NCBI GenBank assembly: GCA_034520945.1 | Contig: JAXHNB010000006.1 | Location: 768,001 to 832,000 of the forward strand | From: Trueperaceae bacterium | GTDB taxonomy: Bacteria > Deinococcota > Deinococci > Deinococcales > Trueperaceae | Reading direction: 5' to 3' | DNA: 64,000 nucleotides | In this document: positions 19,936 through 54,548 of the stretch, piece by piece | How the letters are laid out: the number at the start of each line of letters is the position of its first letter | How positions within the stretch are numbered: position 1 is the first letter of the stretch | Position numbers and translations under genes: made by a program | The notes under the pieces: generated by a model | The model's database searches: none | Told to the model about the DNA's origin: nothing | The model's input: the letters and a program-made list of their open reading frames with translations, nothing else

Positions 19936-20487
19936 ATGGGATTCATCGTCACGCTCGTGGTCCTGGTGCTACTGGTCGGCTCGGTCATCTGGATCTACAA
20001 CCGCATCATCACGCTCGAGAATCGGTACGAGAACGCGTGGAGCCAGATCGACGTGCAACTCAAGCGCCGCAACGACCTGGTGCCGAACCTGGTCGAGACG
20101 GTGAAGGGGTACGCCACGCACGAGCAGTCGGTGTTCGAGGAGGTCGCCCACTCTCGGCAGGCGATGATGAACGCGCGGAACCCCGACGAGGGCGCCGGCG
20201 CGGCGAACATGATGAGCCAGGCGCTCGGGAAGCTCTTCGCCGTCAGCGAGGACTACCCCGACCTGAAGGCCGACGAGAACTTCCGCGTGTTGCAGGAGGA
20301 GTTGTCCTCCATCGAGAACAAGATTGCGTACGCCCGGCAGTTCTTCAACGACGCCGTGCTGCAGTACAACAACGCGATCGAGACCGTGCCGGGCGTGTTC
20401 TTGGCGGGTCCGATGGGCAAGAAGGAGCACGTGTTCCTCGAGATCCCCGACACGGAACGCGAGGCGCCTAGCGTGTCGTTCTCCTGA
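19936..20487 (+). CDS. lemA: LemA family protein
   Basis: N-terminal TM, WSQIDVQLKRRNDLVPNLV and YPDLKA; AGGAGG RBS. Confidence 0.95.
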   Translation: MGFIVTLVVLVLLVGSVIWIYNRIITLENRYENAWSQIDVQLKRRNDLVPNLVETVKGYATHEQSVFEEVAHSRQAMMNARNPDEGAGAANMMSQALGKLFAVSEDYPDLKADENFRVLQEELSSIENKIAYARQFFNDAVLQYNNAIETVPGVFLAGPMGKKEHVFLEIPDTEREAPSVSFS

Positions 20488-20495
20488 GCGCCGCC

Positions 20496-21446
20496 GTGGC
20501 GTCGCCTGGTACGCCTCGCGTCCCGGACGTCATCACCGACCGCACGACCGGTCGGCGCATCAGTCTGCTGGACACGAAGGCCGCCAACGCCCGCGCGTCG
20601 TGGCTGTTGTTCCTCGCAATGATCGTGCTTCTGGGCGGGGTCGGCTACCTGCTGGCCCTCGCGTTCGACGCGTCGGGGGCGATCTGGTTCGTGGGCATCG
20701 CCGTCGCCGTGGCGGTGATCCAGAGCTTCGTGGCGTGGCGTTACGGCGACCGGATGGTGCTGGCGTCGACGGGGGCTCGTCGGGCGACGCGCGAGGAGCA
20801 CCGCTACCTGGTGAACGTGAGCGAAGCCGTGTCGATCGGTGCGGGCGTCCCCATGCCTAGGACGTTCGTGATCGACGATCCCGCGCCGAACGCGTTCGCA
20901 ACCGGACGCGATCCGGAACACGCGTCGATCGCGGTGACGACGGGGTTGCTGGACCTGCTTGGGCGGGAGGAGTTGGAGGGCGTGATCGCCCACGAGATGG
21001 CGCACGTCCGCAACTACGACATTCGGTTCATGTCGTTGCTGGCGGCCACGGTCGGGGCGCTGATGATCCTGCGTGACCTGGTGTGGCGCTGGATGTTCTT
21101 CGGGCGTCGCCGCTCCGGGGGCGGCGGGAAGGGCCAGGCACTGGTAGGCGTCGCGTTGCTGGTGGTGTTGATCGTGGCCCCCATCCTGGCTACGCTTCTA
21201 CGCTTTGCCGTGAGCCGCCGCCGCGAGTACCTGGCCGACGCCACCGGTGCGTACATCACCCGCAACCCCGAGGGACTGGCGCGGGCGTTGGAGAAGCTCC
21301 GCGACTACAGCGGCACGCCGTTGAAGGTCAGTAACGGGGTGCGGCACCTGTTCATCGCCAACCCTGCCGCGCGCGCCAGCGCCGTGGGCCTCCTGTCGAC
21401 CCACCCGCCCATCAGTGAACGGATCGACCGCCTACGGCGCATGTGA
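20496..21446 (+). CDS. htpX: M48 zinc metalloprotease HtpX
   Basis: PNAFATG, HEMAH, REYLADA and STHPP motifs; paired with lemA. Confidence 0.92.
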   Translation: MASPGTPRVPDVITDRTTGRRISLLDTKAANARASWLLFLAMIVLLGGVGYLLALAFDASGAIWFVGIAVAVAVIQSFVAWRYGDRMVLASTGARRATREEHRYLVNVSEAVSIGAGVPMPRTFVIDDPAPNAFATGRDPEHASIAVTTGLLDLLGREELEGVIAHEMAHVRNYDIRFMSLLAATVGALMILRDLVWRWMFFGRRRSGGGGKGQALVGVALLVVLIVAPILATLLRFAVSRRREYLADATGAYITRNPEGLARALEKLRDYSGTPLKVSNGVRHLFIANPAARASAVGLLSTHPPISERIDRLRRM

Positions 21447-21472
21447 GCGCATCCAGCCAGGGCGGCACGAAG

Positions 21473-21498
21473 AGGCCCCCGCCATACGGCGGGGGCCT
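21473..21498. terminator. Hairpin terminator between convergent htpX and rpsA
   Basis: AGGCCCCCGCC-ATAC-GGCGGGGGCCT, a perfect 11-bp stem. Confidence 0.8.
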
Positions 21499-21551
21499 TC
21501 GCGTGCAGGGTCAGGGTCGGCGCGAGCCGGTACGAACCGGGTCGGCCGGGC

Positions 21552-23819
<2,268 letters not shown>

Positions 23820-24151
23820 GAAACGGGGTTCCTCCTAGCGTGGGATGCTTGCGCAAGTGTCCATTAAAGCATACCCGCACCCCTTCCCGCAACTTGGCGG
23901 TGGGGGGCGGAGCCCGTCATGGCACGATCGTGCCTGCCACCAAAGCCTGTCGCACGCGGGTAAACTTCCTCCACCCCGCGCGCCCGAACGACCCGCTCAC
24001 CGCACCCATTCCAAGGGCCCGGGCTGCCGGGCTGCTGGAACACGGCGCCCCCTCGACCTGCGCCCTCGTGCTGCGCCGCGCCGCCACCTCGCAGCTGCCC
24101 GAGCCGCCTTGGCCGTCTCGTAGAACGCGGCCCTCGACCCTGCGCGCGCCT

Positions 24152-24251
24152 CAAGAAAAGGTTCGAGCCCCGCGTGGGAGGCGCGGGACTCGACATTCGG
24201 AAGAGAATGGGAGCGAGGCGATTTACAAGGGGAGGTTCACCTCGAATCCAC
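24152..24251 (-). ncRNA. Predicted ~100-nt sRNA with three C-rich anti-SD motifs
   Basis: Lies between a TAAACT -10 box and an intrinsic terminator. 5' hairpin CGAGGUGA/UCGCCUCG has CCUCCCC in its loop, the linker has CUCCCA, and the terminator loop is CCUCCCA. Both stems contain G-U pairs that only work on the minus strand. Confidence 0.65.
24153..24194 (-). terminator. Intrinsic terminator of the predicted sRNA (and possibly of the TPR gene)
   Basis: Minus strand TCGAGTCCCGCG-CCTCCCA-CGCGGGGCTCGA followed by ACCTTTTCTT. Confidence 0.8.
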
Positions 24252-24257
24252 GACTCT

Positions 24258-24290
24258 AGTTTAGGGGGGCGTTCTTACACAATTCTTACA
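24258..24290 (-). promoter_or_regulatory. Activator-dependent promoter: TGTAAG-N5-TGTAAG-N10-TAAACT
   Basis: Exact 8-mer direct repeat TGTAAGAA with 11-bp period (24290-24283, 24279-24272) occupies the -35 position upstream of a -10 box. Confidence 0.65.
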
Positions 24291-24320
24291 GGGGGCTGCA
24301 GGTCTCTCGGCATCAAAGAA

Positions 24321-25532
24321 CTATTGAAGGAAGTCCGCTGGTATTGCGTCCGCGACGTTCATTTCCTTGTCGAGGAATCGAGCGTTCTGCAGAGTCTTGG
24401 CAAGTGCGCGGAGCGTGTCCATGTCAGCTTCGTACGAAGGGTCTTCTAACTGCTTCTTTAGGTCACATACATGCAAGAGGACTTGACCGTATTCTTGCAG
24501 GAGCCCCATATCGCTGAATGCCGTGGCCGTTTGCTCCAGCTCCCGAATTGCATGCACATTCGTGTACAGCCCGCGTTTACGGAACACGAGGATCTCCCTA
24601 AAGCGATAGGCAAGGCGATCCGACATATCACCAATTAAAGACTGCCCTCGGTTTAGGCAGTGCAATGCTTCGTCGTTGTCAGAAGTCGAAAGTAGGGTCG
24701 CTAGCGCAAGCTGCGACAAGAACTCTTCGTAGACGACTTGTGTCTTTTGCGCCATATCGATGGCCAAGCGGTAGTGACGGACCGCACGTTGGCTGTGCCC
24801 TTGAATCCATGCGATTTCTCCCTGTAGCCACTTACCTTCGACGCGCATCGCTTGAGGGACAGAATCCGAATCAAGCTCGGTCAGCGCCTCCGAGGCTTCT
24901 CGGAGCCGCCCTTGTGCGACAAGTACGGTCGCCCAACGCATACGAGACTTAAGGTGTTGGAGCCCGGTTGTCAATTGCATCCCTCGTTCGAGGAACCAGA
25001 GTGCCCGCTGGGTACGGCCGACCCGACCGTGAAGAATCCCCAACTGCGCCAAGATGGAGGGGGCCAGAAGTTCGAACTCCGGTAGGCCTTGCAGGCGTCG
25101 CCACGCTTCTTCCGCGAACCGCAATGCCTCACGAATGTCTCCATTAGTCTCTTCGTGGATACTCTTAACCCGCATGAAAAATACCTGGTCGTAGCTCGTT
25201 AGACGAGCGAAGTCAACCTGCTGCAGTTCGTCTGAAGCACGTTCCGCATTGTTCGTCATACGAAGTAGGTGAGCCAGATTGACGCGTGCAGCTTGTTGCC
25301 CCTTCGCAATGGCTCGCTCAAAGGCCTCCTGCGCCTCATCATCTTGAACGAGCTGGAAGTGGCACACCCCTAACCATCGATCGTCGTCGGCCGTGGGGTT
25401 GGAGATGTCATGGTAGGCGTTGATCCCTTTGGTGAAATCCTCTAAATAGACCCAGGCTTGCACAACGCTCTCCAAGGACGCTTCGGGAAAGCTCAAAGCA
25501 ACTTGATCAAGGGCATCCTTAAGGTCTGTCAC
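24321..25532 (-). CDS. Tetratricopeptide-repeat protein without an evident DNA-binding domain
   Basis: 403-aa ORF in lower-GC DNA with TPR-like helices (WLGVCHFQL..DEAQEAFERAI; LAQLGILHGRVGRTQRALWFLERG; LQGEIAWIQGHSQRAVRHYRLAI). GTG start follows a TAGGGT -10-like box. Confidence 0.8.
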   Translation of the reverse strand: MTDLKDALDQVALSFPEASLESVVQAWVYLEDFTKGINAYHDISNPTADDDRWLGVCHFQLVQDDEAQEAFERAIAKGQQAARVNLAHLLRMTNNAERASDELQQVDFARLTSYDQVFFMRVKSIHEETNGDIREALRFAEEAWRRLQGLPEFELLAPSILAQLGILHGRVGRTQRALWFLERGMQLTTGLQHLKSRMRWATVLVAQGRLREASEALTELDSDSVPQAMRVEGKWLQGEIAWIQGHSQRAVRHYRLAIDMAQKTQVVYEEFLSQLALATLLSTSDNDEALHCLNRGQSLIGDMSDRLAYRFREILVFRKRGLYTNVHAIRELEQTATAFSDMGLLQEYGQVLLHVCDLKKQLEDPSYEADMDTLRALAKTLQNARFLDKEMNVADAIPADFLQ

Positions 25533-25672
25533 CGGTGCATACCCTACTGCACAATGGACGCCTACCCCTGCTTTGAGTCTCGTTTAGACCGTGAAGCAGA
25601 TCTTCGGCTCGGAACTCGGCGACTGTGTTTTGTGCGCACTCCTTGCTTGCAACAGGTCGTGAAAAACCCCGC

Positions 25673-25701
25673 TTGACCCCTTGCACGCCGCATGCTAACT
25701 T
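25673..25701 (+). promoter_or_regulatory. Sigma70-type promoter
   Basis: TTGACC-17 nt-TAACTT with an extended -10 TG; divergent from the TPR gene. Confidence 0.7.
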
Positions 25702-25707
25702 GTATCC

Positions 25708-25926
25708 AATCGCTGGTGGCTGGTTGGGAGGCCAGGCTAGCGAGGGTTTTCCCGGCAGCTTGTTGTTGTCGGCGTTCGGAAGAGATCGGGAGCTTGGAGG
25801 AGGCTTGAACCACACCCCAAGCAAGGCCTGATCAGAGTGAGTGCGTTTGCGCTCGAGTAGTTGGAGCTGGGAGGCTCCAACAGCGCTGTCCAATTGAGGT
25901 TGGGAGGCCTCGGATAGCGTGTTTTT
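25708..25926 (+). ncRNA. Structured leader or sRNA with repeated UGGGAG-looped hairpins
   Basis: TGGGAGG at 25725, 25868 and 25901, each at a hairpin apex (e.g. GTTGGAGC-TGGGAG-GCTCCAAC). A GGAGG loop lies at 25796. The last hairpin is followed by GTTTTT. Confidence 0.6.
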
Positions 25927-25960
25927 GGCACCCAGTTGGGTGCGGGAAGAGGATGGGAAA

Positions 25961-26062
25961 ATGAAGAACACTGGAAAGCGGATTTTCACCGTCGCGGCTC
26001 TGTTTGCACTCGTCAACCTTCCGTTGTTGGTGCTCGCAGGGGTGCACGTCTCGCAACGCTAA
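25961..26062 (+). CDS. 33-aa small protein: signal-peptide-like N-region plus short tail GVHVSQR (candidate signalling-peptide precursor)
   Basis: MKNTGKRIFTVAALFALVNLPLLVLAGVHVSQR*; AGAGGA RBS 7 nt upstream; its own terminator 20 nt downstream. Too short to appear in the ORF track. Confidence 0.72.
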   Translation: MKNTGKRIFTVAALFALVNLPLLVLAGVHVSQR

Positions 26063-26081
26063 GCCATACACTTCTGTGTCT

Positions 26082-26119
26082 GCCCGCGGTCAGCGCATGC
26101 TTGACCGCGGGCGTTTTTT
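26082..26119 (+). terminator. Intrinsic terminator after the small ORF
   Basis: GCCCGCGGTCA...TGACCGCGGGC 11-bp stem followed by GTTTTTT. Confidence 0.9.
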
Positions 26120-26334
26120 GGTAATGACGCCAAGAGTTGCGTCAGGGCTCACAGTTGCAGCGTAGTATGGACGTGCTATACACTCTCTGGCTGCACTCGG
26201 ACGGTTCCATGTAGGTAGGGCCAAGAAATCGAGGAAGCGATGTTCCGGGGAAGCAACTTGCGCCACAGGTTTTACTGCAAGTCAACTATAGCGATCTGGG
26301 AGTGAACTGTGCGAGGTATTGAGGTCCCAGAGAA

Positions 26335-28848
26335 ATGAAGGCGGAAGGTGCGTTCGGGTCCTCGTGGTTTGCACGACAGATGACGCAGCTTCGCGTTGGG
26401 GTGAGCCCATATTTAGTTCAGAGCCGGCCAAGATTCGGTACCAACTACCTGTTCCATGCCATGGCCTTGTCGCCAGGCGTCCTGTGGATTGAGCTTGAGG
26501 CTAACGACGGTCCAATTGCCATTGGAAATCGACTCAGCTATGCAATGCAGCGTTCTACAGGCACGAATCTATTTGGACTTGGGATGCCGTATCATTATGC
26601 CCTCGGTTACCTGGTTGGCCTACAGGATGAATTTGGACCTATTACACTTGTGGTTAGTAACGCACAGGGCCACGCCTGGTTCATTGAGCACGTTATTCGA
26701 CTCGCACGAATGTCCGATGGCGCTTTGATGATCATTGCGAACGGGCACGAGGATGAAGGCCCCTGGTCGCAGTTGCTTCAGTCGGACGATGTCCGTGTCC
26801 TTTATGAGTCCGATCTTGCTGTGCGGCCAGATGAGGTACCTAGTCTGTTGCACGGTGTAGATGTGCCAGAGCACATTGCACGCGAATTGTCGATGAAGGG
26901 CACCGAGGAAGGGCTTGCGTATGAAGAGGTGCTTGCGACGATCAACCTTGCTACGGGGCATCGTCCGCCGCCGCGACCTTCACCACATGGTGTCGTGTCA
27001 AGTCAGCGGTCGCCCTTAACGAAGAATCAGCAGTTGGAAGTTCTTATTCAGGAAGAACGTTGGATTGATGCGTTTGAACTTGCGACGGTCCGCGATGACA
27101 AGACTGCACTGCACATCCTCACAGAGTCGGCTGATGCGTACTTTGCGAGAGGCGAACCAGGGCGCCTATTACCCCATGTGCGAAAACTCGTAAGTCAGAA
27201 CCCTGAACACGCGAACGCCATGTATTGGCTATTTCAAGCGTATGTGGCACTGGGTCGCCTGAACGAAGTAGAGCGGCGTGTTGAGAGATTCCTAAAGCGC
27301 CACCAGGCACCCACGTTGGCGGCGTCATATGCGTCAGTGGCGCGCCCTCCGAACGCTGTGACCATGGCTGTCCAGGCAGTGGACCGGCTAAGAGTACCCG
27401 AAACGCTGGCGTCGTTGGGCTTCTTGTGGGCGCACAACGGAGAGGCTGCCCGTGGCATAAGTCTCCTTAGGGAAGCTTTCGAGGGCTACCGTCAATCCCA
27501 TCGGTACCACAGGGCCATACAGTTAGCCAATAGCATCGGGTCGTGCTACGTGAGTCTCGGTGACCATCGGCGAGCACTGTATTGGGGAAGATGGGGGATG
27601 GCGGAACTCTACCGTCGAGGAATACGCGAGGAATTGCTGAGGCTATCGTGTACAAATCTTGTTGCTTACGCATCTCTTTTGGTAGGCGAGCTTCAAGAAG
27701 GTCAAGAACTCTTGCGCTGGGTCAAGATCACGCCGAGTGACGATTCGCTTCCACCAACGTTGGAAGGCTTAGTTACGACAATTGGTGACTACAATGTCGT
27801 AGAAGGCAACGCAGAAACGGCACTATTCTGGTATCGCCGGATTTATGCACAGTATTTTGACCGATTACCAGGATATGCGACTCAGTTGGCGGTACGTGGT
27901 CTTTTGCATGCAGGCAGGCTTGACGAAGCTAAGGTTTGCCTGAATGTAGCGTTGGAGGCGGTCGCGCCTCCTGATTCCACGCAACAGGCCAGGCTAAACG
28001 TAGTCCGAACGGTCATCGAAGCATCGTACCCAGAGGGTGCGTTTCCGGAAGAGCGCGCACTTCTGGAACATGAAAGTGTTCAAGAGGACGCTGTCCTCAG
28101 GGCTGAGTATCTAATTGCACGATCGTCGATTCAATATCGGTCCGGTAATCTGGCCGGTGCCGAAGCAACGCTTAGCGCCCACAGAGACGTATTTGGTAGC
28201 TTAGGGCGTTCAGGTTGGGTGCTTTTGGGACCGCCTGGTGCGCCTATTGACACGCTACGCTCGCTAATCGGTATTGCGCGACCAGCTGAAAGGCACCTAC
28301 TCGTACTCAATGACAGAAGCCTCCTGAAGGAGGGTCATCCCGAGCGTCTGTCGAGGCGTTATGCCGAGCTCTTGACCCTACTTTTGCTGAATCCGGAAGG
28401 GCTTACCGGAGAGGCTTTATTGCTCGAATTGTACGGTGATGCGGGAAGCCTAAGCTCTTTGAAGGCCATAGTCTCGCGTTGCCGAAAGGTCGTTGGAATT
28501 GACTCGGCACCGTACCGTCTAGCTGAGCAACTCACTTCCGACCTAACCGACATCGAGGCGCACCTCCGCGCGGGGCGATTGCGTGAAGCGCTCGAGTTGT
28601 ACAAGGGGCCCTTGCTGCCGGAATCCGAGGCGCCGGGCATTCAGCGGGCGCGGGAGCGGATCGACGAGGCATTGCGGCAGGCCGCTCTGCACGCCAACGA
28701 GGGCGAACTCGTATTGCGTCTCGCGCGGAAGTGGCCGGACGACCTGGAACTGTGGGAGCGTGCGGCGGAGCTGTTCCCCAAGAGCGATCCGACGTACCCG
28801 TTGGTGCGTGCACGGGTACGCCGGATTCGTGGGGAGTGGGGGTTGTAG
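26335..28848 (+). CDS. Large transcriptional regulator: degenerate MalT/STAND-like N-region, TPR sensor region, C-terminal winged-HTH/BTAD-like domain
   Basis: 837-aa ORF. SRPRFGTN sits where a Walker A would be expected, TPR-like helices occupy the centre, and the C-terminus reads RLSRRYAELLTLLLLNPEGLTGEALLLELYG...SLKAIVSRCRK...ALELYKGPLLPESEAP. Confidence 0.72.
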   Translation: MKAEGAFGSSWFARQMTQLRVGVSPYLVQSRPRFGTNYLFHAMALSPGVLWIELEANDGPIAIGNRLSYAMQRSTGTNLFGLGMPYHYALGYLVGLQDEFGPITLVVSNAQGHAWFIEHVIRLARMSDGALMIIANGHEDEGPWSQLLQSDDVRVLYESDLAVRPDEVPSLLHGVDVPEHIARELSMKGTEEGLAYEEVLATINLATGHRPPPRPSPHGVVSSQRSPLTKNQQLEVLIQEERWIDAFELATVRDDKTALHILTESADAYFARGEPGRLLPHVRKLVSQNPEHANAMYWLFQAYVALGRLNEVERRVERFLKRHQAPTLAASYASVARPPNAVTMAVQAVDRLRVPETLASLGFLWAHNGEAARGISLLREAFEGYRQSHRYHRAIQLANSIGSCYVSLGDHRRALYWGRWGMAELYRRGIREELLRLSCTNLVAYASLLVGELQEGQELLRWVKITPSDDSLPPTLEGLVTTIGDYNVVEGNAETALFWYRRIYAQYFDRLPGYATQLAVRGLLHAGRLDEAKVCLNVALEAVAPPDSTQQARLNVVRTVIEASYPEGAFPEERALLEHESVQEDAVLRAEYLIARSSIQYRSGNLAGAEATLSAHRDVFGSLGRSGWVLLGPPGAPIDTLRSLIGIARPAERHLLVLNDRSLLKEGHPERLSRRYAELLTLLLLNPEGLTGEALLLELYGDAGSLSSLKAIVSRCRKVVGIDSAPYRLAEQLTSDLTDIEAHLRAGRLREALELYKGPLLPESEAPGIQRARERIDEALRQAALHANEGELVLRLARKWPDDLELWERAAELFPKSDPTYPLVRARVRRIRGEWGL

Positions 28849-28892
28849 CGAGCGAAGCGTCGGGGGGGGCGTAGGTGACCGCGGTGCGAGCG

Positions 28893-29447
28893 TCAGGCCG
28901 CTTCGGACGGGAACGGCTCGGCGCCCATCATGTGGACGACCAGTTGGGCGCGATTGTCGTGCCCGAGTTTGCACAGCGCATTCGAGACGTGGGCGTTGAC
29001 GGTCTTGAACGAGACGCCGAGGTCGCGTGCGGCGCGCTTGGTGTCGAAGCCCATCAGGAGCAGGCGGACGACGCGGAGTTCCATGAAGGTCAGGGGAGAC
29101 TTGTAGTGGTAGCTGCGTTGCGCGGCCGCGGCGGCGTAGAGGGCGGCGACGAGGCCGCGCCCATCGGTGGACGTCACCACGCCGCTCACGTGATAGCTCG
29201 CGAGGCAGTCGAGGTACGCGGGGTGGATGGCCTGAGTGACGATGAGGGTGCGGGCGCGATCGATGCTGTCGAGACGTTCGAGCTGGTACATGGACCACGT
29301 GAGAGGGAAGTCCAGCAACACGTGTGCGACGTTGGGGTCGCTCGCCATGGAGGGCTCCACGTCGGGGCGGTCCATCACCTCCTGGATCAGGCTGATGAAC
29401 GTGGGGTGGGACGAGTGGACGTGAACCGGGAGGGACTGTTCCGACAT
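28893..29447 (-). CDS. LuxR/NarL-type HTH regulator with an atypical receiver-like N-domain
   Basis: C-terminal PLTFMELRVVRLLLMGFDTKRAARDLGVSFKTVNAHVSNALCKLG; GAGGA RBS before ATG 29447. Confidence 0.85.
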   Translation of the reverse strand: MSEQSLPVHVHSSHPTFISLIQEVMDRPDVEPSMASDPNVAHVLLDFPLTWSMYQLERLDSIDRARTLIVTQAIHPAYLDCLASYHVSGVVTSTDGRGLVAALYAAAAAQRSYHYKSPLTFMELRVVRLLLMGFDTKRAARDLGVSFKTVNAHVSNALCKLGHDNRAQLVVHMMGAEPFPSEAA

Positions 29448-29568
29448 GGCCGATTTCCTCCATACATTGGATTTCCCCGCATGTCGCGAGTGTGAGCCAG
29501 CGACGGTTGCATGGAGGTTGCGGCGGGTCGGGGTCGATGCGATCGGTGAGCGGCTCGCGCCGAGGATC

Positions 29569-30408
29569 TCAGCGTATCCGTGGGTCCAGAAGGTCACGCA
29601 GGCCGTCGCCCAGAAGGCTCCACCCCAGCACTGTGAATACGATCGCCAAGCCTGGGACGAGCGCGGGGTACGGGTTGAGCGACATGAAGCTCTGCGCTTC
29701 GCGCAGCATGTTGCCCCAGCTCGGGACGTCGGGCGGCGTGCCGAGCCCGAGGAAACTGAGCGCCGCTTCGGCCAGCACGGCGACGGCCAGGCTGAGGCTG
29801 GCCTGGACCACGAGCGGGGATAGCGCCCCCGGGACCACGTGACGAAGCAGCAGGCGGCGGTTGCCGGCGCCGAGCGCCCGGCCTGCCTCGACGAAGTCGG
29901 CGTGCTTGAGGGTCAGGACCGAGGCGCGCGCGATCCGAGCGAAGATCGGCACGGTCGCCAATCCGATGGCGGTCATGGCGGTGAGCGTGCCGGGTTCGTA
30001 CACGGCGGCGAGAAGCAACGCCATGAGGATGGCTGGGAACGCGTACAGAACGTCGACGAGGCGCATCGTGACTTCGTCGATCCACCCGCCCAACCACCCG
30101 GCCAGCGTGCCGGCCAGTCCCCCGAGGGCCAGTCCGATGCCGACGGCAAGGAATCCGACGTACAGCGTCCCTCGCGCACCGACGAGGACGCGACTCAACA
30201 GGTCGCGGCCGAACTCGTCCGTGCCGAGGGGATGCGCCAGAGAGGGCCCCTCGAGTTGGGCCGCGAAGTCCAGTGCGTTCGGCGGGTAGGGGGTCCACAC
30301 GAAGCTCAGAAGTGCGCCAGCCACGACGGTTCCGATCAGAAGCACGCCGAGCTTCAAGCTGGTGCCGCCCGGGAGGGCGCGCCCTCGGGTGGGGGCCGCG
30401 GACATCAT
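29569..30408 (-). CDS. Peptide/nickel ABC transporter permease (DppC/OppC-like)
   Basis: HPLGTDEFGRDLLSR, EAA-type loop, and EAALSFLGLG. Confidence 0.93.
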   Translation of the reverse strand: MMSAAPTRGRALPGGTSLKLGVLLIGTVVAGALLSFVWTPYPPNALDFAAQLEGPSLAHPLGTDEFGRDLLSRVLVGARGTLYVGFLAVGIGLALGGLAGTLAGWLGGWIDEVTMRLVDVLYAFPAILMALLLAAVYEPGTLTAMTAIGLATVPIFARIARASVLTLKHADFVEAGRALGAGNRRLLLRHVVPGALSPLVVQASLSLAVAVLAEAALSFLGLGTPPDVPSWGNMLREAQSFMSLNPYPALVPGLAIVFTVLGWSLLGDGLRDLLDPRIR

Positions 30409-31352
30409 CAGTCGTACCGGATCCGTGGGTCGAGGAAGCCGTAAGACACGTCGACGAGAAACCCGAGCATCACGATCGTCGTGGCGTACACCAGGATCTC
30501 GCCTTGCAGCAAGGGGAAGTCGCGGGTGCCGATCGCCGTGAGGGCCAGACGGCCCAGGCCGGGCAGGGCGAACACCTGTTCGATGATGATGGAGCCGATG
30601 AAGACGTTGGTGAGGCTCAGGCCCAGGATCGTCACCAGCGTCACGAGGGCATTGCGTAGCGCGTGCCCGCCGATCACACGGCGGGGCCGGAGGCCCTTGG
30701 CGCGGGCGGTACGGACGTAGTCTTGGCCCAACGCTTCGAGCATGGCGGCGCGCGTCATGCGGGTCATCACCGCCGCCTGTCCCAGGCCGAGGGCGAAGAT
30801 CGGGAGGAGCAGGCTACGGATGCTGGCCAGGGGGTCGTCCGACCAGGGCGTGAAGCCCCCGGCTGGCACCCAACCCCATTGCACCGCGAACAACAGGATG
30901 AACATCAGGCCGAGCCAGAACGACGGCACAGCGGCCCCCACCTGGGCCAACGAGACGACCAGCGGGTCCAGCCACGTGCCGCGACGCAGGGCCGCCAGGA
31001 TGCCGAGGGGCAGCGAGATCGCGCAGGCGACGAACGCAGCACCCAGCGCCAGCGGGACGGACACGCCCAATCGGTCGGCGATCAAGGTGGAGACCGGACG
31101 ATCGAAGTTGATCGACCGTCCGAAGTCGCCCTGCAGGATGCCGCCGAGCCACGAGAGGTAGCGCTGCGGGGCGGGCACGTCCAGGCCCAGCTGTGAGCGA
31201 AGCGCAGCCAGCGCTTCGGGACTGGTGTTGATGCCGAGAATGATTTCGGCAGGGTCGCCGGGCACGGCCAACAGGGCCGAGAACACCAACAGCGACGCCA
31301 GCAGAATGGTGACGAGGGCTGTCGCGAAGCGGCGCAGGACGTACGGTCCCAT
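30408..31352 (-). CDS. Peptide/nickel ABC transporter permease (DppB/OppB-like)
   Basis: PGDPA, GDFGRS, DYVRTARAKGL and LDPRI motifs. Confidence 0.93.
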   Translation of the reverse strand: MGPYVLRRFATALVTILLASLLVFSALLAVPGDPAEIILGINTSPEALAALRSQLGLDVPAPQRYLSWLGGILQGDFGRSINFDRPVSTLIADRLGVSVPLALGAAFVACAISLPLGILAALRRGTWLDPLVVSLAQVGAAVPSFWLGLMFILLFAVQWGWVPAGGFTPWSDDPLASIRSLLLPIFALGLGQAAVMTRMTRAAMLEALGQDYVRTARAKGLRPRRVIGGHALRNALVTLVTILGLSLTNVFIGSIIIEQVFALPGLGRLALTAIGTRDFPLLQGEILVYATTIVMLGFLVDVSYGFLDPRIRYD

Positions 31353-31360
31353 ACATGCAG

Positions 31361-31392
31361 CGGGGACGGCACCGGGTGCGATGCCGTCCCCG
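31361..31392. terminator. Intercistronic hairpin after the substrate-binding-protein gene
   Basis: CGGGGACGGCA...TGCCGTCCCCG 11-bp stem with no U-tract; probably stabilises or attenuates the mRNA. Confidence 0.6.
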
Positions 31393-31406
31393 TACCGGTG
31401 TCCGCC

Positions 31407-32921
31407 TCAGCGGGCCCGGTAGACCTCCGTCATGTCGACGGCGGGCGTGGGTTGGTCGGTCCAGAATCCGTACACGTCTTCCTGGGCCGCGACGAGGTAG
31501 GGCGGGCTGAAGATCCACACGTTCACGGCGTCCTCCGCGATGATGCGGGCGATCTCCTGGTAGGCGGCGATCTCGTCCTCCTGCGTGGGGGTTGTCTCGG
31601 CGCGCTCAAGGAGCTCCCCGACTTCGGGATTGTCGTACTGGTAGTAGTAGTCGGGGTCGGCGTACACATTGATGTCACGGGGTTCCGAGTGCCCGATGAT
31701 CGTCATGTCGTAGTCGGCACCGAGGAAGATGCGCTGGATCCACGTTCCCCACTCGACGACACTGAGGTCCACGTCGATGCCGACCTCCGCCAGCTGCTGC
31801 GCGATCACCTGACCGCTGCGACGCTCGATGTTGTACGGCTCGGGAAGCTCGAACGACACGGTGAAGCCGTCGGGGTATCCGGCTTCGGCCAGCAGTTCGC
31901 GGGCCCGTTCGGGGTCGTAGGGGTAGGTGTCGCTCAGGTCGATGTAGTACGGCTCGGCGGGGCTCATGTGCGTGCCGATGACCGTGCCGAGGCCGAACAT
32001 GGCGCCCTCGACGATCGCGTCCTTGTCGATCGCGTGCGTGATGGCCTGCCGCACGCGCAGATCCGAGAGGGGTTCGCGCGCGTTGTTGAGCGCCATGGTG
32101 ATCTCGGTCGTGCCCGTCCCTTCCGTGCCTTTCAGGTCGGGATGGGCGTCGAGTTGCGTGTACTGCTCGGGATTCAGGGCCGTGCCGATCATGTCCACGT
32201 CGCCCGCCTGCAGGGCCGCGAAGCGCGTGTTGGGGTCCCCGATGATGCGGAAGGTGACCGCGTCGAGGTACGGCACGCCGTCCAGGTAGTAGTCATCGAA
32301 CGCCTCGAGGCGAACGGCCGATCCTTCGCGATACGACACGAACTCGAACGGGCCGGTGCCGACCGGCTGGCTCCGCTGCGTGTCGCTGCTGCCCGCAGGG
32401 TAGATGATCGAGTCCGGCCGGGCGAGGTCGTACAGGAAGCTGTTGCTGGGCTGTTCGAGGTGGAAGGTGACCGTGTTCGCGCCTTCGTCGGTGGTGATGT
32501 TCTGGATCGTCTGGTAGTACTCGGGATGCGTGTGGCCCGAGTCCGGATCCCACGCCCGCTCGAACTTGGCGACCACGTCGTCCAGCGTGAGCGGCGTCCC
32601 GTCGTGGAACTGAACGCCTTCGCGCACCACGAACGTCACTTTGGTGCCGTCCTCGCTGGTGCTCCAGTCTTCCGCCAGCGCCGGCACGATGTCGCCGTTC
32701 CGGTCGAAGCGGACGAGACCCTCGAACACGTTGTGGTACACGACGCGGGGAATCTCCTGCGACGTGGACGCGGTCGGGTCCCAGCCGGGCGGGTCGGCGG
32801 TGAGGGCGACGACCACTTCGCCACCGTAGGTTGGTTCGGGCGCATCCTGGGCGGTGGCTGCGGTCGCGAGCGCCAGGGCCAGGGCGAACAGCAGGACGAA
32901 GAGACGGGACTGTCGGATCAT
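31407..32921 (-). CDS. ABC transporter substrate-binding protein, family 5 (DppA/OppA-like)
   Basis: Signal peptide; PALAEDW, FHDGTPLT, PVGTGPF and VRQAITHAID motifs. Confidence 0.93.
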   Translation of the reverse strand: MIRQSRLFVLLFALALALATAATAQDAPEPTYGGEVVVALTADPPGWDPTASTSQEIPRVVYHNVFEGLVRFDRNGDIVPALAEDWSTSEDGTKVTFVVREGVQFHDGTPLTLDDVVAKFERAWDPDSGHTHPEYYQTIQNITTDEGANTVTFHLEQPSNSFLYDLARPDSIIYPAGSSDTQRSQPVGTGPFEFVSYREGSAVRLEAFDDYYLDGVPYLDAVTFRIIGDPNTRFAALQAGDVDMIGTALNPEQYTQLDAHPDLKGTEGTGTTEITMALNNAREPLSDLRVRQAITHAIDKDAIVEGAMFGLGTVIGTHMSPAEPYYIDLSDTYPYDPERARELLAEAGYPDGFTVSFELPEPYNIERRSGQVIAQQLAEVGIDVDLSVVEWGTWIQRIFLGADYDMTIIGHSEPRDINVYADPDYYYQYDNPEVGELLERAETTPTQEDEIAAYQEIARIIAEDAVNVWIFSPPYLVAAQEDVYGFWTDQPTPAVDMTEVYRAR

Positions 32922-34216
32922 GAGGACCTCCCAAGGTCGTGTTCGGACGCGGCCGACGGCCGCTTAGGCGAAGCGTCGGTAGCGCCAAGGTACAAGACGG
33001 CGGCTGCGGCGTAAAGGCGGGCGGCCGTCACCAGTTCGTCCGTGCGGACGAACTCGTCGCGCTGGTGGGGGATGGTGCGGTCGCCGGGGCCCACGGTGAC
33101 GATCGGGACGTCGGCGGTGGCGCGCAAAAAGGTGCCGTCGGTCGCGCCGGGCACCCCGCCGTAGCGAGCGTCGCCCCCGACGGTCCAGGGGTAGGCGCGC
33201 GCCATGGCATGAACGAGGGGATCGTCGCTGGGCGTTTCGGTCCAGGGGCGTGACTCGAAGCGTTCGACCTCGATGGACAGGCGGTCGTCCCGCGCCGCTT
33301 CGGCTGCGGCGCACGTCTCGATGAGGTGCAGCAGCACATCGTGATCCTGGCCCGGCACGGTGCGAACATCGACGGCCAGGTAGGCCTCGCCCGGCATCAC
33401 GTTCAACTGCGCTTCGCCGTCGGCGGGGGCGCGCGTCACGGTCGGCGTGATCCATGGGAGGCCGAGGTGCGGGTGTTCGCCCAGGCGCGCCTGCTCTTCC
33501 GCCTCCAGCGCCTCGAGGGCGAGCACCAGCCTGGACAGGGCGCGCACGGGGTTCGCGCCGGCGTACGGCATCGCGCCGTGCGACATGACGCCGTGCACCC
33601 GTACATGCAGGCGCATGGCGCCCTTCTGGAACAGGCACAGCTCGTTCTCTTCGGGTTCGCACACGATGGCGCCGTCGACGTCGTCGGCCCAGCCGCCCGC
33701 GATGAACGACTTGATGCCGATCATCATCCCCTCCTCGTCGACGACGAAGCCCAGGCGTACCCGGCCCGCGAGATCCGGCGCGGTGCGCCTCACGGCGTCC
33801 AGTGCGGCGATGGCGCACGCCACACCGGCCTTCATGTCGGCACTGCCACGGCCGTGAAGGGCGCCGCCTTGCACCAGGCCCTCGAACGGTGGGATCGCCC
33901 ACCGTGTGGGATCGCCTTCCGTCACCACGTCGGTGTGGCCCTCGAACATCAGCGTGCGGTCCCGTTCGGGGTCGAACGACGATCCACGCCAGTCGCAGAT
34001 CACGTTCGGCCGGCCGGGCGCGACCTCCTCGATCACGGGGTCCAGCCCCATGTCGCGGAGCTCGTCGATCAGAAACGCGGCGGCCTCGGCCTCGGTGGTG
34101 CCAGTTGAGGGGTCGACGACGCTGCGGATGCGGACCAGGCGTCGCGCCAGCTCCACGGCACGCTCGGCGTCGACGGCCTGGGCGGCACGACGGGCTGCGG
34201 TGTCCAGGTCGTTCAC
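32918..34216 (-). CDS. M20 metallopeptidase (ArgE/DapE family)
   Basis: GHTDVV, GRGSADMKAG, DEE, EP and PH motifs; start at GTG 34216 after GAGGA. Confidence 0.88.
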   Translation of the reverse strand: MNDLDTAARRAAQAVDAERAVELARRLVRIRSVVDPSTGTTEAEAAAFLIDELRDMGLDPVIEEVAPGRPNVICDWRGSSFDPERDRTLMFEGHTDVVTEGDPTRWAIPPFEGLVQGGALHGRGSADMKAGVACAIAALDAVRRTAPDLAGRVRLGFVVDEEGMMIGIKSFIAGGWADDVDGAIVCEPEENELCLFQKGAMRLHVRVHGVMSHGAMPYAGANPVRALSRLVLALEALEAEEQARLGEHPHLGLPWITPTVTRAPADGEAQLNVMPGEAYLAVDVRTVPGQDHDVLLHLIETCAAAEAARDDRLSIEVERFESRPWTETPSDDPLVHAMARAYPWTVGGDARYGGVPGATDGTFLRATADVPIVTVGPGDRTIPHQRDEFVRTDELVTAARLYAAAAVLYLGATDASPKRPSAASEHDLGRSS

Positions 34217-34283
34217 GAGGTCCTCGTTGCTGGACGGCGTCGCGTGGTGCCGTGGGTGGCGAGGGTGTAAGCGGGCGTCGACG

Positions 34284-35120
34284 TCACGGCAGCGGGGGCG
34301 TGAAGCGACCGTCCACGGCGAGCCAGCCACCGTCGACGACGAGCAGCGAACCGGTGACGAAGGTCGATGCGTCGCTGCACAGGTAGACGACGGCGCCGAC
34401 CAGTTCGCGGGGCTGCGACCAGCGTTGCAGCGCGCTCTTCTCTGCGTAGGCGCGGTACCAGTCCGGCTGCTCCTTGATGGGGGCGGTGAGGGGTGTCTCG
34501 ACCACGCCCGGCGCGATGGCGTTGACGCGGATGTTGTTGGGGCCCAACTCCGCCGCCAGTGCGCGGGCCATCTGCAGCGTCCCGGCCTTGGTGGCGGCGT
34601 ACACGCCCTGTCCGGGCTCCACCACCTGGCTGCGGATGCTGCTGAACGTCACGATGCTGCCGCTGCCGCGCGCGTTCATGCGGCGGGCCACGGCGGTCAT
34701 GATGGTGAAGTTGCCCTTCAGGTTCAGCGAGACGACCTTGTCGAACTCCTCGGGCGTGAGGTCCAGGAGGGGCTTTCGTACGTTCACGGCCGGCGTGGTC
34801 ACCAGGGCGTCGATGACCTCCAGGCGGTCCAGGACGCGTTCGACGCTGCTCGCGTCGGTGAGGTCGATGCCGTAGGCATCGGCCGTACCGCCGGTCTCCC
34901 GAATCCGTGCGGCGGTGGCTTCGGCCGCGTCCACGTTCAGGTCGGCGCACGCCACCTTGGCACCGAACGCGGCCACGCCCTCGGCCGAGGCCTCGCCGAT
35001 GCCGCTGCCGGCGCCGACGACCAGGACCGTTCGTCCGTGCAGGTCGAACATCGTGCCGTAGTCCGCGGGACCGACGCGCCCCGGGCCCGCCCCATGGTTG
35101 GTTGCATCGTCAGGTTGCAT
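34284..35120 (-). CDS. Short-chain dehydrogenase/reductase
   Basis: GAGSGIG, YAATK and NAIAPG motifs. Confidence 0.92.
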   Translation of the reverse strand: MQPDDATNHGAGPGRVGPADYGTMFDLHGRTVLVVGAGSGIGEASAEGVAAFGAKVACADLNVDAAEATAARIRETGGTADAYGIDLTDASSVERVLDRLEVIDALVTTPAVNVRKPLLDLTPEEFDKVVSLNLKGNFTIMTAVARRMNARGSGSIVTFSSIRSQVVEPGQGVYAATKAGTLQMARALAAELGPNNIRVNAIAPGVVETPLTAPIKEQPDWYRAYAEKSALQRWSQPRELVGAVVYLCSDASTFVTGSLLVVDGGWLAVDGRFTPPLP

Positions 35121-53451: not shown

Positions 53452-54330
53452 ATGAGCACCGAGCCACGAACGTTCGGCGTCGACCTCCGACCGGTACCCG
53501 CCGACCAAGCGACCCTTCCCGTCACCGACCTCACGTTGCGTCGCGGCTACGGCGCGTTCGACTTCCTACGCGTGGAGGACGGCGTACCCCTGTTCGTCGA
53601 CGATCATCTGGCCCGCTTCGATGCCAGCGCCGAACTGATGGGGCTGGCCCCCCGCCCGACGCCGGCCGAGCTGCGCGCGCACCTTCGCGAGCTGATCCAG
53701 GCCAACGGTGCCGGCCGCTACGCGTTTCAGCTGTTCCTGACCGGCGGCGACCCGGTGGGCGGGTTCGAGCCCGGGACCCCCCGCACGCTGGTGCTGGCCG
53801 TGGATCCGCCTTCCTACCCCGCCTCCGCCTACGAGGACGGGGTGGCGCTGCTTCCCCACCGCTTCGAGCGCGACCTGCCGGCGGCGAAGACCACCAACTA
53901 CTTCACGGCCGTGCGGTTGCGGGACGCGATGCGGGAGGCCGGCGCGATGGACGTGCTGTACCACGACGGGACCCGGGCCCTCGAGGCGACGCGAAGCAAC
54001 CTGTTCGTGGCGTGCGGGGACGGCCGCTTCGCCACGCCGGGGCGCGGCGTGCTGCGCGGCATCACGCGCTTGCACGTGATGCGGGCCCTGCAGGACCAGG
54101 CGCGCGTGGACGAACGCGACGTGTCGCTGGAGGAGCTGTACGCGGCGCCCGAGGCGTTCATGACCAGCACCACCAAAGGGATCATGCCCGTCGTCCGCGT
54201 CGGCGATCGCACCATCGGCGATGGCCGCCCGGGACCGGGTACCCGGGAGGTGGAGACCCGGTTTCGCGCCTACCGCGACGCCTGGCTCGCCGAGGCCGCA
54301 CCGGCATGGCAGGTCGGCACGGCCGCGTAA
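53452..54330 (+). CDS. Class IV aminotransferase (D-amino-acid/branched-chain/PabC-like)
   Basis: GYGAFD, HLARF, AKTTNY, EATRSN, LRGITR and EAFMTST motifs. Confidence 0.9.
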   Translation: MSTEPRTFGVDLRPVPADQATLPVTDLTLRRGYGAFDFLRVEDGVPLFVDDHLARFDASAELMGLAPRPTPAELRAHLRELIQANGAGRYAFQLFLTGGDPVGGFEPGTPRTLVLAVDPPSYPASAYEDGVALLPHRFERDLPAAKTTNYFTAVRLRDAMREAGAMDVLYHDGTRALEATRSNLFVACGDGRFATPGRGVLRGITRLHVMRALQDQARVDERDVSLEELYAAPEAFMTSTTKGIMPVVRVGDRTIGDGRPGPGTREVETRFRAYRDAWLAEAAPAWQVGTAA

Positions 54331-54548
54331 GAATTTCGTGACGAGCGCTGCGCCACGATGAAGGACCGCCGCGGGGCTCCCTCCGCGGACGTTCACGGTG
54401 GCTTCGAAGGGAATTCGTCACGTTTCGGCCGCGCCTCTGCACGTATCCTCGTATGCGGAAGGGGATCGGGAGCACGCGTGTGGACCGGGGCGCCATCATC
54501 GGTTGGGAGGCCGGGCGCCAGGTTCCACCGGCCCGACACGTGAGATTC

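Follow-up and report, generated by a model that had tools for sequence, protein, structure and literature searches.

A putative peptide-pheromone module with a small-RNA arm in Trueperaceae (Deinococcota)

Genes and features of the locus

The stretch of DNA analysed here comprises 64,000 nucleotides of a Trueperaceae genome (contig JAXHNB010000006.1, positions 768,001 to 832,000; in the following called the window). Within it we studied a small group of genes in which a short gene for a putative secreted peptide lies divergently beside the gene of a tetratricopeptide repeat (TPR) protein, accompanied by two structured RNAs and two further regulators. The source organism is a salt-pan relative of Deinococcus, and its assignment to the Trueperaceae (Deinococcota) is due to the names of the closest proteins and contigs. 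Its genome has a size of 3.47 Mb and is 97.4% complete. The features of the locus are as follows.

24156-24253, minus strand: C-rich small RNA (sRNA) gene (fold z = -5.7; covariance model R1, 89.8 bits)
24258-24290, minus strand: promoter of the sRNA, with direct repeats TGTAAGA-N4-TGTAAGA (TGTAAGAATTGTGTAAGA) at 24273-24290, a gap of 9 nucleotides (nt) and the -10 hexamer TAAACT at 24258-24263
24321-25532, minus strand: cytoplasmic TPR protein of 403 amino acids (aa), the candidate peptide receptor in its short form (Pfam: TPR families only)
25673-25701, plus strand: promoter of the peptide mRNA, TTGACC, 17 nt, TGC-TAACTT (extended -10), recognised by conservation
about 25708-25960, plus strand: structured G-rich leader of the peptide mRNA (fold z = -5.0)
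25961-26062, plus strand: 33-aa pre-peptide MKNTGKRIFTVAALFALVNLPLLVLA-GVHVSQR, signal peptide and heptapeptide tail (hidden Markov model, DNA pattern, codon use)
26081-26120, plus strand: intrinsic terminator of the peptide gene, a stem of 13 pairs, nine of them G-C, followed by TTTTTT
26335-28848, plus strand: 837-aa regulator (Pfam TPR and BTAD; structural model)
28893-29447, minus strand: 184-aa regulator with a LuxR/GerE-type helix-turn-helix (HTH), its start taken as the ATG at 29447 (Pfam GerE, 1.8e-11)

A preliminary description of this DNA had proposed a compact locus of lower GC content in a Deinococcota-like organism, with a TPR-only protein, a TPR/winged-helix/BTAD activator and a convergent LuxR-type regulator, and these proposals hold. 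The GC content amounts to 52-56% across 24000-28500 versus 65-74% in the flanks. Solely TPR families are assigned to the 403-aa protein in Pfam, TPR and BTAD are found in the 837-aa protein, for which the model adds a winged helix at residues 653-735, and the gene with the GerE domain converges with that of the 837-aa protein. The 33-aa open reading frame (ORF), described as having its own promoter and terminator, is likewise present, with its start at 25961 and not at 25962, and so is the terminator, of which the 13-bp hairpin and its T-run occupy 26081-26113. The promoter could be retained by conservation but not by a strict sigma-70 scan, which gave no promoter in 23800-29700 versus 1.9 expected in shuffled sequences; the promoters of the locus rest on conservation and not on that scan.

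At third codon positions the GC content (GC3) amounts to 0.61 in the TPR gene and 0.57 in the 837-aa gene. The LuxR-type gene has 0.86 and the remaining neighbours with a family match have 0.79-0.95, and the low values (0.57-0.61) are confined to the genes of the TPR protein, the peptide and the 837-aa protein (24321-28848). Recent transfer or fast evolution could explain them.

Further loci were collected via the 837-aa protein (20 loci) and via an alignment of TPR proteins, A1 (35 loci), while genome-wide tallies cover 128 Trueperaceae genomes from 36 genera. These counts are not independent because the genomes are related, and genome G118 enters as one unit in the tallies of the sRNA (92/128) and of the 837-aa family (108/128). 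Since all elements of the locus are kept in other genomes, they are not chance features.

The pre-peptide and its candidate receptor

With a hidden Markov model built from five copies, the pre-peptide ORF could be identified in 34 of the 35 TPR-anchored loci, 33 of which show it in divergent orientation to the TPR gene; locus L035 is rearranged and L055 does not contain the ORF. Among the 20 loci anchored on the 837-aa protein it is found in all five that have the TPR gene and in none of the 15 that do not. A DNA pattern for the N-terminal part of the pre-peptide occurs exactly once in each of 45 of the 128 genomes, with no matches of the control, and by coordinates 42 of these 45 sites lie within about 0.6 kb of the start of the TPR gene. 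The genomes with the pattern number 44 among the 62 TPR-positive ones and one among the 66 TPR-negative ones. Variant pre-peptides with other tails are located upstream of the TPR gene in G024 and G069/G071, which the pattern had missed, and a filter for peptide ORFs upstream of the TPR gene found none in G016, G085, G114 and G054:C115.

The 34 distinct 33-codon sequences use two to five kinds of synonymous codons at invariant residues (four at Gly5, four at Ala26, five at Arg33), and the constraint therefore acts on the protein level, which bears out the earlier suggestion that the ORF is translated. Judged by these data, the 33-aa ORF is a real, translated signal-peptide gene that is tied to the TPR gene.

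The pre-peptide has the layout of a textbook Sec signal peptide, in which MKNTGKR is followed by a hydrophobic core and then by the tail. At the predicted cleavage site Ala is found at -1 and one of V/A/G/S at -3 in 34 of 34 sequences, and Pro at -6 in 27. The tails share the frame G-x-x-x-S-Q-R (Gly in 33, Ser in 28, Gln in 27 and Arg in all of the 34), and positions +2 to +4 are hypervariable with at least six different residues each, so that 26 different tails occur among the 35 loci. Genomes G013 and G058 encode a 43-aa variant with two copies of the putative mature hexamer, which change together (AGLEHR twice versus SGAERR twice). The two loci are:

L163, G013:C1:2266318-2267718: duplicated hexamer, 43-aa pre-peptide
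L164, G058:C2:2817295-2818695: duplicated hexamer, 43-aa pre-peptide

The 403-aa TPR protein shows no visible signal peptide at its N-terminus. Among 8000 candidates scored, 194 clusters at E values up to 0.001 belong to its family, and these are unnamed, hypothetical or annotated as TPR proteins. Most of the members listed have about 550-570 aa. In alignment A1, the proteins of 533-598 aa have at their C-terminus a domain whose sequence pattern is that of an OmpR/SARP-type winged helix. About 20 clusters, including that of the window, comprise 392-430 aa and are devoid of the winged helix. A remnant of the long-form extension was sought downstream of the 403-aa gene, and none is present there. 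By these comparisons the TPR-only form is a derived, genus-level truncation of a transcription factor composed of TPR and winged helix, and a mode of action like that of Rap on a LuxR-type HTH would therefore not be ancestral.

The AlphaFold model of the 403-aa protein has a mean predicted local distance difference test score (pLDDT) of 93.6 and a predicted template modelling score (pTM) of 0.87. Foldseek ranks RapJ-PhrC (4gyo) first with TM scores of 0.64-0.73 and also lists Rap of phage phi3T with its pheromone, Rap of pLS20 and NprR, while generic TPR proteins reach 0.29-0.47 in the rows compared. In VIA-align the top eight entries are all Rap or NprR, with Z scores of 26.3-28.4, 325-332 aligned residues and root mean square deviations (rmsd) of 3.7-4.2; phage phi3T Rap leads with Z 28.4 (rmsd 3.9, 330 residues), RapF-PhrF reaches 28.2 and NprR 27.8, and the structures of AimR are found at about 20-22. 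The identity to Rap and NprR in the structural alignments is 9-14%. Two results speak against a specific assignment: MalT domain III (Z 26.2) and a subunit of APC (Z 25.5) follow closely behind Rap and NprR, and by sequence only generic TPR families of Pfam are found. According to the model, the TPR protein has the fold of the RRNPP receptors, which is however not cleanly separated from other sensor TPR domains.

A complex of the TPR protein and the 33-aa chain received weak support from structure prediction, with a score of 0.57 (runs 0.57, 0.22 and 0.63) versus 0.01 for the best control; the runs agree in at least 50% of the contacts, and the pLDDT of the partner is at least 37. Of 157 solved complexes, 116 reach the mark used for such predictions, and so do 2 of 215 mismatched pairs.

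The second protein with TPRs at the locus is the 837-aa regulator. Its model (pLDDT 89.4) shows an alpha/beta domain up to about residue 210, TPRs at 230-645, the winged helix and BTAD-like helices, and the BTAD match is located at 738-785. The top match in Foldseek is the STAND-TPR protein 6mfv, and NprR and MalT domain III are also listed. Compared by sequence with solved structures, the family finds generic TPR proteins and, weakly, an OmpR-type domain (5za3, E 5.6e-4) and NprR (5dbk, E 9e-4). An hhalign comparison with the receptor family gave 95.6% and E 1.3e-8 over 369 columns, which cover the TPR and winged-helix parts, and this makes the 837-aa protein a distant paralogue of the TPR receptors. 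This family is present in 108 of the 128 genomes with one to seven matches each. A full-length paralogue with 30% identity is encoded at G000:C2:270403-272823; within the 14 kb around it (L025), no peptide or TPR gene was detected.

A copy of the 837-aa gene adjoins the peptide gene in 21 of the 35 loci and a homologue of the LuxR-type gene is adjacent in 17, both counts being limited by contig ends. Of the LuxR-type protein, the HTH alone matches solved structures, and its N-terminal domain is unassigned.

Distant full-length homologues of the receptor were found by its profile in three other families of the Deinococcota (46 of 125, 18 of 19 and 5 of 68 genomes); a further family, with 23 genomes, gave no match. 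They are TPR/winged-helix/BTAD proteins, one of them with 632 aa on a plasmid of Deinococcus taeanensis, and their relatives are annotated as activators of the SARP family. Ten of 20 distant loci that were fetched contain, at most 600 nt from the gene, a divergent ORF of 34-64 aa with a signal peptide and an A-x-A site, which was not found in the other ten. Such ORFs are 27 times denser in this interval than elsewhere in these loci (10 per 12.4 kb versus 8 per 266.6 kb). Pairs of receptor and pre-peptide of this kind are thus found in Deinococcus and in two other families, and the tail of the pre-peptide from Deinococcus taeanensis reads DPGTVGG...

A C-rich small RNA and the leader of the peptide mRNA

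In the window the sRNA consists of a hairpin with a C-rich loop, the single-stranded sequence CUCCCAUUCUCUUCCGAA, and a terminator hairpin with the loop CCUCCCA and a run of U. Its copies have about 90-100 nt and share the loop CUCUCCCA in the first hairpin, the single-stranded CUCCCAUyCUCUUCCGAA and the terminator loop CCUCCCA. The interval between the stop of the TPR gene and the neighbouring gene for a protein with S1 domains, in which the sRNA lies, is conserved in 11 copies from nine loci. With covariance model R1 the sRNA was identified in 92 of the 128 genomes and 28 of the 36 genera, in one to five copies each. Among 35 distinct sequences 96.2% of the cells are paired, in comparison to 25.9-59.9% if the partners are slid by one to three columns. 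Compensatory changes are seen in 8 of the 10 pairs of the terminator helix, and none of 500 shuffles reached the observed values, in an alignment which was fitted to the covariance model and thus favours the terminator. Rfam 15 gave no matches at gathering thresholds in the whole window and, at E values up to 1, a single match of chance level (E 0.98) in 20000-34000. The C-rich sRNA is a new conserved family without an Rfam match.

Judged by coordinates, at least 24 genomes have the sRNA directly behind the TPR gene and on its strand. In G018 and G050 the distance is about 2 kb, and in G013, G058, G059, G060 and G085 the sRNA lies elsewhere. At least nine genomes of genus g6 (e.g. G015:C7:2908-5252) have a second copy, which is divergent from and about 300 nt away from a gene for a member of the 837-aa family of about 640 aa that is devoid of the N-terminal domain.

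The preliminary description had noticed the C-rich sRNA behind a direct-repeat box. The sRNA stands, whereas the box is not private to the locus and turned out to be a family-wide promoter element. In the sRNA copies of other genera the box, the gap of 9 nt and a TAnnnT hexamer are retained. The heptamer TGTAAGA occurs 11 times in the 3.47-Mb genome, and the box with at most one mismatch is present in 94 of the 128 genomes, with up to about 20 per genome, versus approximately none for the reversed control. Box copies are followed by 9-10 nt and a TAnnnT hexamer, and they precede genes for the sRNA, pilin-like proteins, receiver-domain proteins, lipoproteins and small helical proteins. A comparison of the 128 genomes by their content of the box and of the two protein families (TPR and 837-aa) gave neither family a clean match as regulator of the box, and some box-rich genomes are, at the thresholds used, without both.

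Further copies of the box in the genome of the window are located at G000:C5:574863 (+), G000:C5:451268 (+) and G000:C6:238892 (+). The first of them precedes two genes for type IV pilin-like proteins (MRNKSTGGFTLIELL...), and another one precedes a gene for a 72-aa helical protein, relatives of which follow the box in other genera too. These copies suggest a small regulon shared with the sRNA.

The peptide mRNA would start from a promoter TTGAC-N17-TGnTAnnnT, which is found ahead of the ATG at a distance of 250-311 nt in most loci and of about 170-180 nt in a group with short leaders, and which was missed in eight loci. In the window the leader forms hairpins with UUGGGAGG loops (GGTTGGGAGGCC at 25722-25733 and 25898-25909, CTGGGAGG near 25868), and it also contains motif A, TTCGGAAGAGATCGGGAGC, at 25775-25793. 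The ribosome-binding site GGAAGAGGATGGGA at 25945-25958, for which the family has GGRAGGAUGGGA, is directly preceded on its 5' side by a hairpin. Across the loci the leader has the single-stranded motif UUCGGAAGAGnUnGGGAG, the loops read UUGGGAG(G/A) and the stems covary, including the hairpin before the ribosome-binding site, with compensatory changes in 6 of 11 predicted pairs.

The preliminary description had further claimed that the loops of the leader are complementary to the sRNA. Hexamers were counted without prior choice of a motif. The commonest one in the 35 leaders is TGGGAG (111 times, two to five per leader, in 35 of 35), and the commonest one in the 35 distinct sRNAs is CTCCCA (75 times, in 35 of 35). 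The two are exact reverse complements, and each is absent from the other set. The complementarity holds to this extent. The claim does not extend to longer pairing, which exceeds shuffled sequences in only some of the genomes. For the window, the sRNA has 14 contiguous bases able to pair at the ribosome-binding site, which 4 of 300 dinucleotide shuffles equal, and 17 at the leader, equalled by 2 of 300. Pairing with the ribosome-binding site above that of shuffles was also found in two other loci of the same genus, and pairing with the leader is marginal in three others. Local DNA similarity between the sRNA gene and the peptide leader has a score of 30, which none of 300 shuffles reached. Duplexes of sRNA and leader calculated with RNAduplex were uninformative, as they were unrealistically full-length and shuffles were nearly as good (z -0.1 to -2.2).

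CsrA was considered as a binder of the G-rich loops and rejected, as its family PF02599 was not found in the window genome by a search which matched 3 of 14 control genomes.

A second element resembling the G-rich leader precedes a gene for a PAS-GGDEF-EAL protein:

54455-54548, plus strand: leader-like G-rich element upstream of the PAS-GGDEF-EAL gene (54549-56684, plus strand)

It contains GCGGAAGGGGATCGGGAGC at 54455-54473 and a GGTTGGGAGGCC hairpin at 54501-54512. Genome-wide, the combined leader motifs were found at the peptide gene, at the GGDEF-EAL gene and at one site in a coding sequence which is likely due to chance. Upstream of the orthologues in three genomes of the same genus these motifs are kept, and the orthologue of g6 is without the hairpin. 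The local DNA similarity between the sRNA gene and this leader (score 20, reached by 31 of 300 shuffles) is not significant. A box-like sequence, GTAAGAATTTCGTGACGA, is located at the stop codon of the gene upstream of this leader (about 54328-54345).

Comparison with known systems and the proposed circuit

Peptide quorum sensing with cytoplasmic TPR receptors is regarded as a hallmark of the Bacillota and their phages, and the RRNPP_Detector survey (PMC10075063) assigns peptide systems to Bacillota. The locus resembles the RRNPP systems of Bacillota (Rap-Phr, NprR-NprX, PlcR-PapR) in that an all-helical cytoplasmic TPR protein is encoded beside a small gene for a pre-peptide with a signal peptide. 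The signal comprises the C-terminal 5-8 residues there and a predicted heptapeptide here, with a variable specificity core, and some pro-peptides of both sides have duplicated units (for Bacillota, according to the abstract of PMC11343458). The differences are that the present organisms are Deinococcota with an outer membrane and that no sequence-level family match was found. Where a DNA-binding domain is present, it is a C-terminal winged helix of the OmpR/SARP type, in contrast to the N-terminal HTH of NprR, PlcR, Rgg, PrgX and AimR; the window protein has neither such an HTH nor the three-helix bundle of Rap. Moreover, the pre-peptide gene is divergent here and located downstream of the receptor gene there.

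A divergent peptide gene is known from the Rgg-SHP systems of streptococci, in which import by an oligopeptide permease is part of the cycle. SHP peptides do not have a Sec-type signal peptide and depend on a dedicated exporter and a membrane protease, unlike the pre-peptides described here with their classical A-x-A site for signal peptidase. The arbitrium system AimR-AimP-AimX of Bacillus phages likewise combines a peptide receptor with an adjacent small-RNA output, for which the C-rich sRNA is a candidate here, and the AimR structures are among those matching the TPR model. For AimX, no pairing with the aimP mRNA is known, while the sRNA of Trueperaceae is complementary to the leader of the peptide mRNA; in addition, the present system is chromosomal and family-wide.

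The 837-aa protein is similar to SARP/AfsR activators in its combination of winged helix, BTAD and TPR sensor, but has the first two at its C-terminus, whereas they are N-terminal in SARP. Promoters of the SARP/PhoB type have direct repeats with a period of 11 bp just upstream of the -10 hexamer, a layout which the promoter of the sRNA shares. A response regulator composed of receiver and SARP domains is conserved in Deinococcus according to PMC3564903, and C-terminal SARP-type domains are therefore usual in Deinococcota. The best match in Foldseek and the listing of MalT domain III connect the 837-aa protein also to the MalT-type STAND proteins, unlike which it has no Walker A motif in its N-terminal domain; the motif [AG]xxxxGK[ST] was found in the first 300 residues of none of the 21 family members.

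With sRNAs of the RsaE/RoxS type, which are C-rich RNAs of Bacillota that target G-rich ribosome-binding sites, the C-rich sRNA shares several accessible C-rich motifs directed to Shine-Dalgarno-like G-rich sequence. It differs from them in its taxon, in the missing Rfam match and in its target, a leader with two to five copies of the G-rich motif in hairpin loops, an arrangement suggestive of contacts between loops or of titration. No such system was found described in searches of the full-text literature on Deinococcus and Trueperaceae or on RRNPP systems in Gram-negatives, in accordance with the earlier remark that the architecture is undescribed in the phylum.

Considering all this, the locus is probably an RRNPP-type peptide-pheromone module of the Trueperaceae that is coupled to an sRNA arm. 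The pre-peptide would leave the cytoplasm via Sec and be cleaved behind the invariant Ala26, which would release a heptapeptide G-x-x-x-S-Q-R with a specificity set by its three variable residues. The peptide would build up outside the cell and re-enter, one candidate importer being an adjacent system of the Dpp/Opp type:

29569-34330, minus strand: M20 peptidase, family-5 solute-binding protein and two Dpp/Opp-type permeases (Pfam), a possible importer

Inside the cell the peptide would bind to the TPR receptor, and in most relatives the C-terminal winged helix of the receptor itself would act directly on DNA. In the genus of the window, where the winged helix is missing, the receptor would act via a partner, most plausibly the 837-aa paralogue, or else the LuxR-type protein. 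The adjacent sRNA would be one output, controlled through the winged-helix partner at a promoter with direct repeats spaced by 11 bp in place of a -35 hexamer. By pairing with the UGGGAG loops of the peptide mRNA and with its ribosome-binding site the sRNA may exert feedback on peptide synthesis, and by pairing with the similar leader of the PAS-GGDEF-EAL mRNA it may have cyclic di-GMP (c-di-GMP) as an output.

Of the RRNPP-analogous circuit that the preliminary description had suggested, the conserved peptide gene, the Rap/NprR-like fold and both RNAs remain, and the action of a Rap-like protein on the LuxR-type HTH had to be given up as the ancestral mode. The Opp/Dpp-like transporter does adjoin the module in the window, but is not a conserved neighbour: no more than 4 of the 35 loci have strong matches to the permeases beside the module. 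This weighs against the pheromone reading, as do several of the observations on which the following three alternatives draw.

The alternative that survives best, although we regard it as rather unlikely, concerns the RNA arm. The sRNA could be a general anti-Shine-Dalgarno mimic under a global activator that acts via the TGTAAGA box, while the hairpins of the leader have a role in protein binding or in ribosome loading and the sRNA lies beside the TPR gene by mere synteny. The box is indeed widespread before varied genes and is present also in genomes without a TPR gene; because of this and of its number of up to about 20 per genome the regulator that acts on the sRNA may be global. The sRNA itself is also encoded where no strong TPR match exists, for instance in five of five genomes of genus g14. 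UGGGAG resembles a Shine-Dalgarno sequence, and in the test for the longest pairing several genomes are no better than shuffles: extended pairing of the sRNA to its target is clear only in the genus of the window (three loci) and no better than that of shuffles in L049 and L056. A general mimic does not, however, account well for the position of the sRNA directly downstream of the TPR gene in so many genomes. Together with this site, the second copy in g6, beside the regulator of about 640 aa from the same superfamily, gives two independent linkages. The dominant hexamers of leader and sRNA are moreover exact and mutually exclusive complements, the combined leader motifs are restricted to the peptide and GGDEF-EAL genes apart from the one likely chance site, and for a protein that binds the hairpins no CsrA gene could be found in a genome that is 97% complete.

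It is improbable, in our opinion, that the 33-aa product is instead a small single-pass membrane protein whose cytoplasmic MKNTGKRIF tethers or modulates the TPR regulator or regulators, with a tail that is incidental or a periplasmic sensor. The nine residues MKNTGKRIF are invariant or nearly so as protein even though their codons vary, which is unusual for the n-region of a signal peptide and hints at a role in the cytoplasm. The hydrophobic segment I8-A26 is with 19 residues long enough to cross the membrane, and the complex prediction, which was made with the full 33-aa chain and without contacts being given, is silent on the end that touches the receptor. On the other hand, the -3/-1 rule is followed throughout and a helix-breaking Pro is frequent at -6, a conserved G...SQR frame around a hypervariable core is unexpected for an incidental stub, and the co-changing hexamers in two genomes point to a short processed unit. 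The distant pairs of the other Deinococcota, finally, vary the N-terminus and yet keep the signal peptide and the A-x-A site, with 8-42 residues of hydrophilic tail behind it.

No more credible is a peptide that is secreted as an output and not as a signal (antimicrobial, envelope-associated or nutritional), with a TPR/winged-helix regulator that senses another ligand: divergent pairs of regulator and target gene are common, the partners in distant Deinococcota are longer, rich in Gly/Pro and sometimes equipped with Cys and thus less like classical pheromones, and the predicted complex with the receptor gives weak support at 0.57, since scores up to 0.60 among those reaching the mark include only 18 of the 157 solved complexes and both of the passing mismatches; but the nearest solved structures of the receptor are peptide-bound Rap and NprR, seven residues with three hypervariable ones and so many variants are the pattern of receptor-matched pherotypes and not of an effector, and the interval from the TPR gene to the 837-aa gene of the window has no evident genes for modification or immunity.

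The pheromone module may be part of something larger. It is possible, although we lean slightly against it at present, that the Deinococcota own a phylum-wide class of peptide pheromones, in which a Rap/NprR-like TPR protein with a C-terminal SARP-type winged helix is paired with a divergent, Sec-exported pre-peptide, and in which the pherotypes of the Trueperaceae are wired to a C-rich sRNA that closes a feedback loop and controls the turnover of c-di-GMP. This would be the first RRNPP-like quorum sensing outside the Bacillota and in a bacterium with an outer membrane. If the pheromone reading of the window locus is true, the range of peptide signalling is wider, with another receptor architecture and with a peptide that must cross an outer membrane, and the likeness to the systems of Bacillota raises the question of a common ancient origin versus convergence. 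Two new RNA families with a testable logic of pairing would be added, and the natural variants of the peptide would be a ready set of candidate orthogonal pairs of signal and receptor. The idea can be tested at the bench because homologous pairs exist in cultured Deinococcus, e.g. on the plasmid of Deinococcus taeanensis.

Some variation was seen around the module. On the minus strand at 21552-23819 the window encodes a 755-aa protein with five S1 RNA-binding domains, which is a conserved neighbour of the module in many loci. In locus L019 (G001:C4:45539-59746), which is of the same genus, the genes for the 837-aa and LuxR-type proteins lie beside this S1 gene without the TPR gene, the peptide ORF or any match to the sRNA, and this locus is a natural deletion variant of the module. 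In L018 and L021 (G019 and G020, from two genera) about 1.4-2.5 kb of extra DNA separates the peptide ORF from the 837-aa gene.

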